Below are positions 2,448 through 32,960 of a stretch of DNA of 33,311 bases, piece by piece. Below the pieces are notes generated by a model that had not been told where the DNA came from, made no database searches, and saw nothing but the letters and a program-made list of their open reading frames with translations. Position 1 is the first letter of the stretch. Each line of letters opens with the position of its first letter. Source of the DNA: a virus (lineage: Duplodnaviria > Caudoviricetes). The position numbers were made by a program, and so were the translations under genes. The stretch is taken from positions 1-33,311 of the IMG/VR virus record IMGVR_UViG_3300010047_000008; one strand, given 5' to 3'.

Positions 2448-3542
2448 CTACTCCCTTCCCAACCGGTCCAACCAGGCAGAATAGAGTCCGGCGCAGGTCT
2501 TCAACCCGAAACTCGACGCCGCGAAGTCGCGCAGCGAACCGGTCCCGTATACCCCACGATGCAGGATCGCCCATTCCACGGCTTCGGCGGCGTCCCCCAC
2601 CTCGTTGATCCGGCACTCCGGCGGCACCCATTCGGTGAACCCGCCCCAGTTCGTCGTCACCGGCCAGACACCGGAGAGCATCGCTTCCGCGAACACGCCG
2701 CCCCACGGCTCGATGTAGAGGGTCGGGACGAGCGTGCATGACGCTCCGGCGTACAACTCGGCGCGGGCTTCGGCCCGCACGGTGCCCATGTGGTGTACGT
2801 CGAGGTCGGAAACGTCCAGGTCACAGCCGTCGTCGGTGATCCAGCGGCCGTTCGAGATCACGGATCCCTGCCCGGCGATCACCAGAGGCTTTCCCGTATA
2901 CCGGGCTATTCGGGCGACGAGTTCGACGCCTTTACGGCGGATCGCCCGGCCGATGAACAGCAGATAGCCTTGGTCGTCGGCCTCGTGGAAGTCGTCGGGC
3001 CGGTAGAAGTTCGGGATCACCGCGTCGTACGGGTTGCCGTCGTTGATGTTGTACCGGCCGTAGATGTGATGCAGCCAGGCGAAGCTCTCGAACACCTTGC
3101 CGGTGGTCTTCATCGACACACCCGAGTATCCGACGCACGGTTCGACCCACGTGAGGTGCGGCAGTTCGTGGTACAGCCCGTCGTGGTTCGAGCCGGACAT
3201 CGTCATCACGATTTGGCCCGGTTCGGCCCAGGCGTGAAGCCAGGCCGCGGCCCGATGGTTCAGCATCCGCCAGTGCGCCGTCTCCGGGTTCCAGTCCAGA
3301 TTCAGGATCGTCGCGGGCAGGTCGGCACCGAAGCATTTGGCCTGTTCGCTGTCCGACAGCAGCGACACGAACTCGTCGCAGTCATTGACCGGTGCGTCGC
3401 CGCCCCACAGCACGGTGACGTGCGCCCCCAGTTCGCCGCGCAGCATCTCCACCAGCCGGACCGCCTTGGCGGTGAACGCACAGTGCGGGTAGGTGATGTC
3501 ATCGAACCGGGTGTGCGGGAAGCCGAGCAGGATCAGCTTCAC
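2448..3542 (-). CDS. Glycosyltransferase, GT-B fold (GT4-like)
   Basis: YLLFIGR..RRKG, LVIAGQG, LVPTLYIEPWGGVFAEAMLSG (EX7E); probable GTG start at 3542 overlapping the previous TGA rather than 3785. Confidence 0.9.
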   Translation of the reverse strand: MKLILLGFPHTRFDDITYPHCAFTAKAVRLVEMLRGELGAHVTVLWGGDAPVNDCDEFVSLLSDSEQAKCFGADLPATILNLDWNPETAHWRMLNHRAAAWLHAWAEPGQIVMTMSGSNHDGLYHELPHLTWVEPCVGYSGVSMKTTGKVFESFAWLHHIYGRYNINDGNPYDAVIPNFYRPDDFHEADDQGYLLFIGRAIRRKGVELVARIARYTGKPLVIAGQGSVISNGRWITDDGCDLDVSDLDVHHMGTVRAEARAELYAGASCTLVPTLYIEPWGGVFAEAMLSGVWPVTTNWGGFTEWVPPECRINEVGDAAEAVEWAILHRGVYGTGSLRDFAASSFGLKTCAGLYSAWLDRLGRE

Positions 3543-4672
3543 AGCCCCTCCAATTCGTATACCCGGAACGCCAACTCCCTGACGGCGGCGACGACGAGCG
3601 GCATCAGCTTCGAGGCGTCGAGTTGCTGCGGCATGATCGCCCCCACCGACGGGGCGCGCAGTTCTTCCACGTCCTGTTCGGTCGCCACCGCGTCCATCTC
3701 TCCGACGACGGCTTCGGGGACGATCTCCGCGACCTCGTGGGCGATGAACCCGTCCATCCGTTGACCGTGGCTGTCGTTCAGCCACGTATACCGGATCGGG
3801 TTCAGGTCGAGCAGCCGTTCGAGCGCCCCAGTGATCGGGCCGAGCACGTTCTTCACCCGATAGTCCGACGTGGTCCCGTAGTTCGTCGTGTTGGCTGCCG
3901 GGGACGTGATCGCGCCGACGGTGCTGTCACCGCGCCGGAAGTGCATCAGGTCGGCCCCGTTGGCGTTGCCGCCTCCCGCCTTGTTGGCGATGAAACAGGG
4001 CGTGTTCAGCAACTCGTTGGTCATGCGGAAATACTGGGCGGTGCGCCAGATGGTGCCGCCGACGTTCGGATTCGTTTCGGTGGTGAGACCGCCGAGCACG
4101 TACGGATCCTTGAACCGGACGAACTCGGTCGGATTGCCGATCCTGACGACCTGACCAGCGGCCGACGCGACGTAGACGTTCTCGATGTCCGAATACAGCC
4201 GCATTTCGCCGTTCCATCGGCCGACATGACCGACCCGCAGCGTTTCTTGCGGCGTCGAGAAGAACGCGATATACGGCTGGTTGGGTCCGCTCACGTCCGA
4301 CGAGATGCGAAGCACATCTTCTTGGGTGTGCCCGATCACCCGTGCCCGTTGAGTGCCGCATTGAAGAATCGTGTTCCCGGCGACAGCAAGGTCGATGTAC
4401 TGGTTCGACTGCAACGACAACGTGGAGTTGTTGGCCGGGGCTTGCAGTACGAACGCCGCTGACGCTCCGGTGCCGAACGCCATCATCGTGCCGACGGTGA
4501 CACCGTTCGATTTCAGGTTGATCGGACTGTTCGCACCGCCGCCGGTCGTGTCGTTGACGTTGAGTGGGCCGGTGAGCGTGCCGCCGGTCAACGGCAGGAA
4601 GTCACCGCCAACGCTGCCGCTACTGGCGATGTCGATCCACTGATCGTTGACCTTGACCCGCAGCACACCCAT
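3539..4672 (-). CDS. Tail fibre with C-terminal S74 intramolecular chaperone
   Basis: FLPLTGGTLTGPL, YGTTSDYRVK, LNPIRYTW, GFIAHEVAEIVPEAVVG, QQLDASKLMPLVVAAVREL. Confidence 0.88.
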   Translation of the reverse strand: MGVLRVKVNDQWIDIASSGSVGGDFLPLTGGTLTGPLNVNDTTGGGANSPINLKSNGVTVGTMMAFGTGASAAFVLQAPANNSTLSLQSNQYIDLAVAGNTILQCGTQRARVIGHTQEDVLRISSDVSGPNQPYIAFFSTPQETLRVGHVGRWNGEMRLYSDIENVYVASAAGQVVRIGNPTEFVRFKDPYVLGGLTTETNPNVGGTIWRTAQYFRMTNELLNTPCFIANKAGGGNANGADLMHFRRGDSTVGAITSPAANTTNYGTTSDYRVKNVLGPITGALERLLDLNPIRYTWLNDSHGQRMDGFIAHEVAEIVPEAVVGEMDAVATEQDVEELRAPSVGAIMPQQLDASKLMPLVVAAVRELAFRVYELEGL

Positions 4673-4673
4673 G

Positions 4674-4880
4674 TCAGGACGAGGTTTCCTCCACGTGAAC
4701 GGCCGCGCCGTTCGAGCCGACCGCCGGTAGCTGCCCTTGAACCTCCGCGAGAGTGGTGAGCAGTTCGAGGTTCTCTCGCATCAACTGCCCGATGCGTTGC
4801 GCCAGGTTCTCTTTCACGATCTGGTCGCGTTGAGCCTGTCGCAGCAGATCTTCGTAGCTGGGCTGACCGTCGTTGCTCAT
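4674..4880 (-). CDS. Small coiled-coil protein (fibre-associated)
   Basis: [13 protein letters not shown]...; ATGA overlap at 4877-4880; heptad pattern. Confidence 0.65.
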   Translation of the reverse strand: MSNDGQPSYEDLLRQAQRDQIVKENLAQRIGQLMRENLELLTTLAEVQGQLPAVGSNGAAVHVEETSS

Positions 4881-5173
4881 GGCGCGGGCGCGGGTTCGGG
4901 CGGCACCGCGGCGAGCAGGGCTTGCATCGCGGCGAGGATGTCCTGGTCGGTGATCACCGACGCCTCCCACCCGGGACGGCCGATGCCCGCAGCCTGCGCC
5001 GACTCGTACTTGGCGTCGAACCCGGGGGCAGCGGCGAGCTTCCAGATGTTGATCTGGACGTAGCTCAACGGGTTGGTTGGGCTGGCAGCGGGGATCTCCT
5101 TGGACGCGGCGGCGTTGCACCGGGCGATGAAGTCCTGATCTTGGGCGAGTTGGGATTGGGCGGCGTAGCTCAT
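4877..5173 (-). CDS. Small fibre-associated protein (possible chaperone)
   Basis: [15 protein letters not shown]...[18 protein letters not shown] overlap with the fibre gene, AAGGAG RBS. Confidence 0.75.
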
Positions 5174-32700: not shown

Positions 32701-32875
32701 TTGCCCGCACCGGCCGTATACCGACGCGGGCTTCTTCGATCTCGTTGTCGATCTGGACGGCGGACGCTTGGAGGACGGCCCGTTCGTAGACGTTGTTGGT
32801 GAGTCCGGCCCGGACCCGCATCCGGCGTCGCTTCTTGCGCAGCGCCGCGATCAGCCCTGTGTCGATGTTGATCAC
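29789..32875 (-). CDS. Multi-domain (polyvalent) head-associated protein: 2H phosphoesterase, zincin, ADP-ribosyltransferase-like and Cys/His module
   Basis: HCTICYLG...FIPHVAG; FDPSLHPRGRDGQF; LVHEFSH...KYG....EGYAEAW; LYRG...AWS...EQEWII; CYSCSH...CDAYPAGIP..I....DH..P. Confidence 0.75.
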   Translation of the reverse strand: MINIDTGLIAALRKKRRRMRVRAGLTNNVYERAVLQASAVQIDNEIEEARVGIRPVRASSGGFEGAVIVLLCDHGEVEYADGEHCPMHCTICYLGKSKDLDGYQRNAARNVMEQIASNLKPFEATALSPARFGDEDVMLVEAPEIQQARDIAMADNLVGRTVDDYPDKHPHFIPHVAGTDDAPYFDRVGLWLGDEGREELPLGGMSAAVFDPSLHPRGRDGQFIEVGGLVKLFGFGMDENGQRTNVQNRRGRVEKIDGPDDIWVQEPDGGPRYKVRSSQVERLPEPKAYLNDVPGTSRSVEIWGADKEPLAVGGEVEVSGLHGFQHGQRGDPVVKGEIAAIAPADGTHLGDSVITVKVTDSRWDPAQFGATIDVRPSQVAKPGFSKKQGGMPPVSKPPKAPKATDPQYVDTGIPPPRHGLPEMVADPDGPNFAPLQTPAEWEQMTPDARKQWVQDKMEADLSAWRGKPVIFDVKQYDSGIALNLANTWRELANWDPATARRIDDFVPEGMWGGAIAVAHPGTEHPGGIGPVTKEIQIAFNPMYFRSMKPSNEEYASDQKMTSHGSLSWSMSSKYNDPTLTLVHEFSHQRQFRYLNESMTDVGSAWSPVVMDDGFGMFPDSSNWTRTQELRYAIPKLTPTKYGHSKTSEGYAEAWTARLTGDSSDALDSALDEWGNLMGLSEHLPPDRYTSTTSYADLTPDQRDQFWAHNGPYLDLPGMRDHYPEAAETYDQWRTGQAVDAGVELGEAPAPPGAPSPDSPALMQTINTPGPAAIGTEGGYWDMSGDEPRLVQDHDALVRDALWSMKGDWTNVMIHMAHERRGDPQPDSGSGKIMRAQAKALMDELATNSRPNPMRLYRGATQTPTGLRAWSQNRRTANRFAKLSGGQVYVLEPGEGRGIRIADYINSGRDQEEQEWIIDSDQGEAPAATPPAAVASALTAQGDDMTSFAIPMCYSCSHLHDTVEMQCDAYPAGIPDEILESRVDHRQPYTGDQDIQFEQNPGMPEPDFVRLGFDQEQPTGAAPAGTVPY

Positions 32876-32883
32876 CGCCGCGG

Positions 32884-32917
32884 ACTTTACGTCCGGCGGG
32901 GGTGCTGACCTGGGAAA
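32884..32917 (-). promoter_or_regulatory. Putative late promoter, leaderless transcript
   Basis: Minus strand TTTCCCAGGTC-N17-TAAAGT-N8-GTG, same as 12580-12613. Confidence 0.55.
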
Positions 32918-32960
32918 TCAGGGGAATGCTTCCCGTATACGGTATGTTGTATTAGGTGCT

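Follow-up and report, generated by a model that had tools for sequence, protein, structure and literature searches.

Short DNA words iterated through coding sequence are the subject of this analysis, which concerns a 33.3-kb stretch of viral DNA (IMG/VR record IMGVR_UViG_3300010047_000008, positions 1 to 33,311; the whole stretch is hereafter called the window). With 67% guanine-cytosine (GC) content and with genes for terminase, capsid, protease, tail, amidase, glycosyltransferase and AAA ATPase, the window is a fragment of an uncultured tailed soil phage, and the sequencing runs containing it are labelled soil metagenome. Two words are iterated in it, the asymmetric octamer GGTATACG, which carries the palindromic core GTATAC, and CACGTG(G); their excess is real and lineage-specific. 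The words are most likely under selection and probably act as sites for a DNA reader, a protein that remains putative. It is known that phages shed short palindromes to evade restriction; here the same genome also gains and keeps two words despite the rare codons involved.

The GTATAC excess and its octamer

GTATAC occurs 33 times in the window, compared with a mean of 0.93 and a maximum of 4 in dinucleotide shuffles (n = 100); the first-pass annotation of this DNA had counted the same 33 copies, and all its coordinates are exact, with no omissions and no extras. Based on 36 hand-called genes, 26 copies lie in genes and seven outside them, and the frame split given earlier is reproduced, with 10 copies read as GTA TAC (Val-Tyr), nine as xGT ATA C (all Gly-Ile) and seven as G TAT AC (x-Tyr-Thr), evenly placed along the genes (relative positions 0.05-0.98). 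Codon-aware shuffling, which the annotation had proposed as a check, leaves the excess in place: the 26 in-gene copies stand against 1.4-4.8 expected, namely 1.39 in pooled synonymous-codon shuffles (mean; maximum 6, n = 2000), 2.3 in within-gene shuffles (maximum 8, n = 400) and 4.8 under a junction-aware null (maximum 13, n = 400). When two collagen genes are removed, 18 copies remain versus 4.3 expected, and the 66.2 kb of non-redundant clade DNA holds 45 sites versus 2.8 expected; a feature at the level of DNA with roughly one copy per kb, as suggested earlier, is borne out across all clade DNA examined. The accompanying argument from rare codons holds insofar as the excess is independent of protein sequence, but such codons occur outside the motif too, which accounts for 9 of the 14 ATA, 10 of the 28 GTA and 7 of the 26 TAT codons in the window.

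Extension to GGTATAC on one strand, also claimed earlier, is confirmed for 29 of the 33 copies, and in these oriented copies the following base is G in 21, A in five, C in three and T in none. When each 8-mer is scored at encodable positions, that is, sites in the 66.2 kb of clade DNA where the protein allows it, GGTATACG occupies 35 of 60 (sense 22/38, antisense 13/22) and GGTATACA 8 of 37, versus 2 of 21 for the palindromic GGTATACC and 0 of 35 for the palindromic CGTATACG; GGTATACT (0/33), AGTATACG (0/47) and TGTATACG (0/48) are unused. Because GGTATACG is so favoured over both perfect palindromes, the preferred word is an octamer that is asymmetric despite its palindromic core, and both strands and all parts of genes carry it; the earlier reading as a HIP1-like palindrome is not supported. 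The clear consensus spans 8 bp, beyond which there is only a weak G bias and no flanking symmetry, and the two strands carry 37 and 22 copies over 66 kb. Val-Tyr (42 versus 35.6 expected) and Tyr-Thr (34 versus 33.8) dipeptides show no clear excess; the word is therefore placed where the protein leaves room for it. In relatives without the word, the occupancy of GGTATACG is 1/71 (G001) and 0/42 (G005).

In the window, GGTATACG has 21 copies (2547..32721) on both strands, 18 in genes and three (14463, 18488, 24772) outside called genes. The cores of 14 copies start on the minus strand at 2547, 2896, 3557, 3786, 8707, 11253, 21484, 24189, 24772, 25667, 28727, 29507, 30810 and 32716, and those of seven on the plus strand at 11846, 12407, 14463, 18488, 19358, 24320 and 29910. 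The five copies of GGTATACA (5451, 7404, 8268, 9213 and 9672; 5451..9677, minus strand) all encode Gly-Ile-Gln in the collagen-like tail-fibre gene 5170-11061, and the three copies of GGTATACC (20474, 20582 and 31636; 20474..31641) all encode Gly-Ile-Pro.

Sites are kept between relatives at silent positions, where the annotation had advised looking. In comparison with an 88%-identical phage in the metagenome-assembled genome (MAG) G003, GTATAC is kept at 16 of 23 aligned sites, versus 42% for control hexamers; where residues are unchanged, it is kept at 10 of 10 (5.1 expected, P = 0.001) and CACGTG at 18 of 21 (11.8 expected, P = 0.002). The same measure against L013 gives 9/9 for GTATAC and 9/9 for CACGTG (6.8 expected, P = 0.06). 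At each of the seven lost and four gained GTATAC sites at least two bases differ, one-base intermediates being absent, and the residue has changed in all five lost sites that are codon-alignable. A deamination route from GCATGC, GTGCAC or CGCGCG was rejected, as intermediates are not in excess and none is present at the differing sites.

The second word, CACGTG, is present in 34 copies (49..33224), mostly as CACGTGG/CCACGTG and in all three frames, with 32 in genes of the window versus 8.7 expected. CACGTGG occupies 76 of 127 encodable positions in the clade versus 14/160 in G001 and 11/118 in G005. Moreover, of 32 six-letter palindromes that could be tested, 18 never occur in the window, and the asymmetric CAGCTC, CTCCAG, CTCCTC, CTCTTC and GAGCCC have zero copies in 66 kb of clade coding DNA; because many palindromes and several asymmetric hexamers are missing together, strong restriction pressure would appear to be at work. 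Neither the CACGTG word nor the palindrome purge figured in the first-pass annotation.

Relatives, bacteria and known systems

Relatives were found with the major capsid protein (phrog_777; 26134..28035, minus strand) as the query. Among the 25 distinct capsid-bearing loci compared (L012 is the window; L015, L017 and L024 are duplicates; L031, a distant match, was dropped), a GTATAC excess is seen in L001, L013 and L030, with capsid identity of 96-98%, and in none at 73% or below; for 10 short loci the analysis was confined to counts. The whole records of five relatives (56-128 kb) hold 8, 5, 2, 1 and 1 GTATAC copies, with one GGTATACG in the 96.6 kb of G001, and both words are confined to the close clade. 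Other words are iterated elsewhere. G007 (complete, 93.8 kb; L146-L150) carries 102 copies of TTTCAAA/TTTGAAA with a mean gap of 926 bp, 82 of them in genes versus 7.6 expected, unoriented and in five of six frames, and 47 of 64 palindromes have one copy or none in it. G006 (128 kb; L151-L157) is enriched for AGCCAACT (35 versus 3) and AGCCGGCT; a C5 cytosine methyltransferase is encoded in it at L155:430-1644. No comparable iterated word was found in G001, G004 and G005, and G001 is also purged of palindromes (24/56), yet has no iterated word.

The density of GGTATACG in the clade is 634 per Mb, and it is not enriched in 401 genomes of the phylum of G008 or in 121 of that of G003 (approximate, eye-read maxima of ~50 and ~35 per Mb). 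CACGTGG reaches ~425 per Mb at most in 151 bacterial genomes versus 1314 in the clade. The phyla follow the labels Aeromicrobium (G008) and Thermomicrobiales (G003), and the tallies include 16 genomes marked unpublished, the quoted maxima coming from other genomes. That the motif might simply be a host-wide compositional feature, a possibility raised in the annotation, is at odds with the lack of excess in the bacterial genomes sampled. MAG G003 itself contains 77 GGTATACG, 35 on four phage contigs and 42 in the remaining 8 Mb. These contigs (C81, C236, C287 and C443), ~60 kb of clade phage in a MAG labelled Thermomicrobiales, are probably mis-binned, and the label is therefore no host evidence. 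An actinobacterial host is likely, because the best cultured matches of the major capsid protein are actinobacterial phages (identity at most 38%), WhiB is encoded by one of the five relatives, and look-alikes of a small helix-turn-helix (HTH) protein of the window are mostly from Actinomycetota.

The phage word works like HIP1 and the alternate HIPs of cyanobacteria (PMC4390886, PMC5861425) in its strong all-frame, codon-independent excess, and conservation between relatives beyond codons (10/10 versus 5.1 expected) is likewise of the HIP1 type. It differs in belonging to a phage and not to the sampled bacteria, in being an asymmetric AT-cored 8-mer, and in coexisting with a second word; chromosome-wide enrichment of the HIP1 type was not found in the 401 + 121 bacterial genomes. 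A methyltransferase is encoded in the clade, but its homologues do not predict the word, for which its specificity is putative. Chi-rich lambdoid phages such as LLS (PMC12315714) likewise carry an asymmetric octamer at ~1 per 1-2 kb; Chi sites, however, are oriented (20/23), are bunched towards one end, abound in the host and are recognised by its RecBCD, whereas the phage word is unoriented, uniform and rare in sampled bacteria, in a clade with an ERF recombinase. The stoperators of Cluster A mycobacteriophages (PMC3029335) resemble it in their ~30 asymmetric sites, and HTH proteins are encoded in the clade, but stoperators are 13 bp long, mostly intergenic and oriented with transcription, as opposed to 7-8 bp, mostly in genes and unoriented. 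The nick motifs of Pseudomonas phages tf and Rembedalsseter (PMC11780129) are also short, conserved in a phage group and present in and outside genes; they lie on one strand (13/13), whereas the phage word uses both (14 minus, 7 plus). The phage word fits none of these four classes fully. Of the analogies drawn in the first-pass annotation, that to HIP1 is not supported as regards the palindrome, and that to stoperators fails on account of length, location and orientation.

In addition, a MANTIS preprint deals with word depletion rather than excess, and PMC6286503 reports some site classes as only slightly over-represented. Among the titles and abstract openings listed in searches of the open literature, none dealt with the GGTATACG word or with such a tagging system.

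Candidate readers and rival explanations

Clamp proteins of the ParB/Noc/KorB type spread over ~1-kb distances, and Noc and KorB act in this way from scattered sites. The clade writes GGTATACG and CACGTG(G) into its genes via synonymous codon choice and keeps them between relatives; it is tentatively proposed that they serve as phage-self tags for a phage-encoded, sequence-specific protein. The predicted reader would be one of two ParB/Noc/KorB-like clamps, which would load on the words, spread ~1 kb and coat phage DNA while host DNA is left uncoated, and the coating might protect against host restriction or direct a neighbouring adenine methyltransferase. A phage-self tag is favoured because the word is exact, has no preferred orientation, recurs at ~1 per kb and is scarce in the bacteria sampled; such a word would let a phage protein load on phage DNA, because the host chromosome would not titrate it. 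Spacing was compared with random draws from encodable positions, and four of the nine tests run reach P < 0.05. CACGTG is more evenly spaced than random (coefficient of variation 0.70 versus 1.08; 0/4000 draws), as is TTTCAAA in G007 (0.85 versus 1.02, P = 0.017), as expected of a reader acting over distance.

The candidate genes lie on contig C443 of G003 (L044), which has 14 GTATAC, 22 CACGTG and 0 of 16 purged palindromes. Its nucleotide comparison with the window gave no match at E 1e-30; it is assigned, with some caution, to the same phage because it has the same words and the same palindrome purge and supplies modules missing from the window (tape-measure, Dit, ERF and replication-initiator). 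Three genes stand in a row on it, encoding a ParB-like protein, a second such open reading frame (ORF) and a D12-type adenine methyltransferase. The first, ParB1 (L044:5242-6219), is ParB-like by PHROGs (E 2e-5), by the PDB sequence 7bnk (E 3e-4) and by Atlas, and its predicted fold (pLDDT 79.7), which combines the N-terminal fold of ParB with a helical, HTH-like region, matches ParB, Noc, Spo0J and KorB at E 2e-5 to 7e-4. The second, ParB2 (L044 6216-7601), has a GxxR motif read from its sequence. No homologues of the trio were matched in the five relatives' records, which lack these words. The ParB-like families are small (12 proteins for ParB1 and 32 for ParB2), no IMG/VR loci were found for either, and no ParA-like ATPase was found on C443. 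ParB1 homologues are encoded on contigs of 104, 68 and 45 kb. In phages, DNA methyltransferases are frequent fusion partners of ParB folds (PMC12704722).

Several results weigh against this proposal. The ParB-like genes lie outside the window, on a relative's contig assigned partly by the words themselves, and the ParB1 profile matches only L044 among all loci searched, though G007 iterates TTTCAAA. No ParB or DNA methyltransferase was found in G007 by Pfam (65/117 ORFs) or PHROGs (29/117 ORFs); the family can therefore keep a word without these genes, which speaks against one family-wide reader. Many other genes are clade-restricted too, such as those at L044 967-2214, for a 415-aa multi-HTH protein whose repeated HTH units resemble those of HNH endonucleases (no Pfam nuclease domain was found in it), and at L044 3948-4907, for a protein that resembles TOPRIM/topoisomerases (phrog_6247, E 1e-7) and had no match in any of the five relatives, so that the co-occurrence of ParB and word rests on one clade. 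The clade DNA analysed amounts to ~66 kb, while the records of relatives reach 94-128 kb, and the true reader may therefore lie in unseen DNA. Neither the main word (GGTATAC, borderline P = 0.085; GGTATACG, P = 0.35) nor the G006 word (P = 0.96) is spaced significantly more evenly than random, and the bacterial samples (401 + 121 genomes) may miss the host. Furthermore, the sites of known ParB/Noc/KorB proteins are palindromic, longer and spread much more thinly, whereas the phage word is an 8-bp asymmetric sequence with no flanking symmetry, even though a predicted ParB-fold protein with an HTH region is encoded in the clade as in those systems.

Other proteins have been considered as readers. 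The small predicted HTH protein at 18131..18466 (minus strand), the DNA-binding candidate of the first-pass annotation, is flanked by GTATAC at 18105 and 18488 and has no PHROG or Pfam match; its homologues occur in G001 and G005, both without the word, which disfavours it. No recognisable DNA methyltransferase is present in the window, and the methyltransferase-like gene 23867-24475 matches MetW/Methyltransf_11 and has a homologue in G004, which is without the word. In G007, a winged-helix ORF shows no resemblance to ParB2 (E 0.057), and ORF L148:9165-9821 has a weak HARE-HTH match (E 5e-4) and is a possible reader candidate.

It is also conceivable, though rather unlikely, that the words are read by a host protein, be it a nucleoid protein, a methyltransferase or the reader of some Chi- or HIP-like signal, and that the host is more tolerant of DNA with the words, the word changing as phage lineages move to other hosts. 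The different words of the clade, G007 and G006 would fit, as would the absence of a reader match in G007 and the strong palindrome purge in the two lineages with the highest-fold words (17/32, 47/64), and Chi-rich lambdoid phages are a precedent for gaining a host-read octamer (PMC12315714). Yet neither word is enriched in the bacterial genomes counted, there is no orientation bias of the Chi kind, G001 is purged but has no word, and the clade encodes an ERF recombinase, whereas Chi-rich phages, according to the same paper, mostly lack recombination modules. A host reader would suggest an unrecognised Chi-like signal in soil bacteria. Less probable is the HIP1/methyltransferase model, in which the phage's own small adenine methyltransferase targets the words and methylated sites are selected or generated. 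The D12-type enzyme is unmatched in all five relatives, and alternate HIPs track methyltransferases, with a predicted density of ~1 per kb (PMC4390886). However, in 80 viral loci that encode homologues of the enzyme (31-49% identity), the GTATAC excess nowhere comes near the clade's at least 18-fold, the highest among those with at least five copies being 5 versus 1.0 (L114); G007 iterates its word without a methyltransferase match, and one small methyltransferase would need to act on two words that are not related. Nine homologue-bearing records (eight of 14 candidates plus L056) were examined for words. L054 and L060, the closest by eye in the putative recognition loop, have 0 CACGTG, and L060 has no five-fold word and L054 only two weak 8-mers, whereas L053, L055 and L056, which have a loop sequence in common, carry TAGTGAAAT(C) as an iterated word on both strands, in favour of the model. 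Reversed, TAGTGAAAT(C) presumably resembles the P1 parS box-A heptamer. L060 also contains GCGTAA nine times, and a PDB search with the methyltransferase family gave E 0.059 at best.

A phage repressor or activator (the window HTH protein or the multi-HTH protein L044:967-2214) binding GTATAC operators, with dispersed copies as stoperator-like roadblocks, is improbable. Seven copies are intergenic, two of them flanking the HTH gene, GTATACT is part of a conserved upstream element, and four of five relatives have intergenic GTATAC; but 26 of 33 sites are inside genes, even and unoriented, unlike the 13-bp, intergenic, oriented stoperators (PMC3029335), homologues of the window HTH protein occur in relatives without dispersed sites, and the promoter-type GGTATACT is unused in genes. 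Just as little probability attaches to a neutral, sequence-biased repair or recombination process that converts near-matches into functionless copies of the word. An occupancy of ~60% of protein-allowed positions fits saturation, a restoring drive would imitate retention, GGTATACG is spaced as in random draws, and one-mismatch neighbours number 60, below the 101 of shuffled sequence. That deficit, however, about equals the number of sites made and is no separate signal; frame-1 sites require two adjacent rare codons (GGT ATA), CACGTG and TTTCAAA are more evenly spaced than opportunity predicts, and the lost and gained GTATAC sites include no one-base intermediate. A by-product of restriction-site avoidance or codon-pair bias is largely excluded: the absent palindromes (18/32) could shift codon choice, but GTC TAC and GTG TAC are used as alternatives (12 of 22 Val-Tyr), the excess persists under the junction-aware null, AGTATACG, CGTATACG and TGTATACG stay unused, and the purged relative G001 has a single GGTATACG.

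If a phage clamp does read the words, it would amount to a marking of self-DNA for which no description was found in the searches made, possibly a form of counter-defence, and would offer a small model for the HIP1 question, with sister lineages with and without the word and few testable candidate genes. A more doubtful extension is that such tagging is swappable, lineages pairing different host-rare words (GGTATACG/CACGTGG here, TTTCAAA in G007) with phage clamps to coat, shield or methylate the genome.

Intergenic copies and other genes of the window

The four copies without the GGTATAC form (17079, 18105, 28179 and 32935) are all outside genes. Because relatives without the dispersed word also hold intergenic GTATAC (a few copies in four of the five), the intergenic class is treated as separate. 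At 17079..17095 (minus strand), upstream of gene 16473-17042, the element is TTGAC-N7-GTATACTGTAAAC, and at 18105..18122 (minus strand), upstream of the AAA ATPase gene 17099-18046, TTGAC and GTATACTGTAAAC are 7-8 nt apart; both are also present in L047. The copy AGTATACG at 28179..28184 is upstream of the major capsid gene and kept in L001, L013 and L045, and CGTATACG at 32935..32940, between the divergent genes 29789-32875 and 32961-33119, is kept in L013 and L045. The annotation had called these exceptions promoter-like. They are intergenic, and TATACT at 17079 and 18105 is likely a -10 hexamer, judging from its sequence, but canonical -35/-10 promoters are ruled out there by the 7-8 nt spacing, at which TTGAC is too close, and by 0 matches in a sigma-70 consensus scan of 14300-33311.

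A conserved upstream element of GTAAAC repeats, CTTGAC and GTATACT at non-canonical spacing precedes the AAA ATPase, 189-aa and 657-aa genes (window 16455-16470, 17070-17105 and 18095-18135; L044 3900-3935; L047 6015-6030), and is possibly an operator-promoter for the HTH protein. A viral-contig scan for the intergenic element gave one unrelated match, of 41% GC. The block 14470-18046 encodes the AAA_5 (MoxR-like) ATPase, the 189-aa ORF and the 657-aa VWA-like ORF; the ATPase and 657-aa genes are present in all five relatives and the 189-aa gene in four.

The terminase large subunit gene (3..860, minus strand) is cut by the window end. A megablast search of cultured phages with window 1-25000 gave zero matches, no tRNA was found in the window, and all its long repeats belong to collagen and tail paralogues. 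The glycosyltransferase gene 2448-3542 and the small methyltransferase-like gene 23867-24475 lie among structural genes and, as in actinophages, presumably serve virion glycosylation. Very large proteins are encoded in the head region, of 1028 aa in the window (29789-32875) and 2471 aa in L045 (10721-18136); they contain the motif HPRGRDG in repeated form and match a 2'-5' RNA ligase weakly, and their counterparts in relatives have zeta-toxin and MuF domains.

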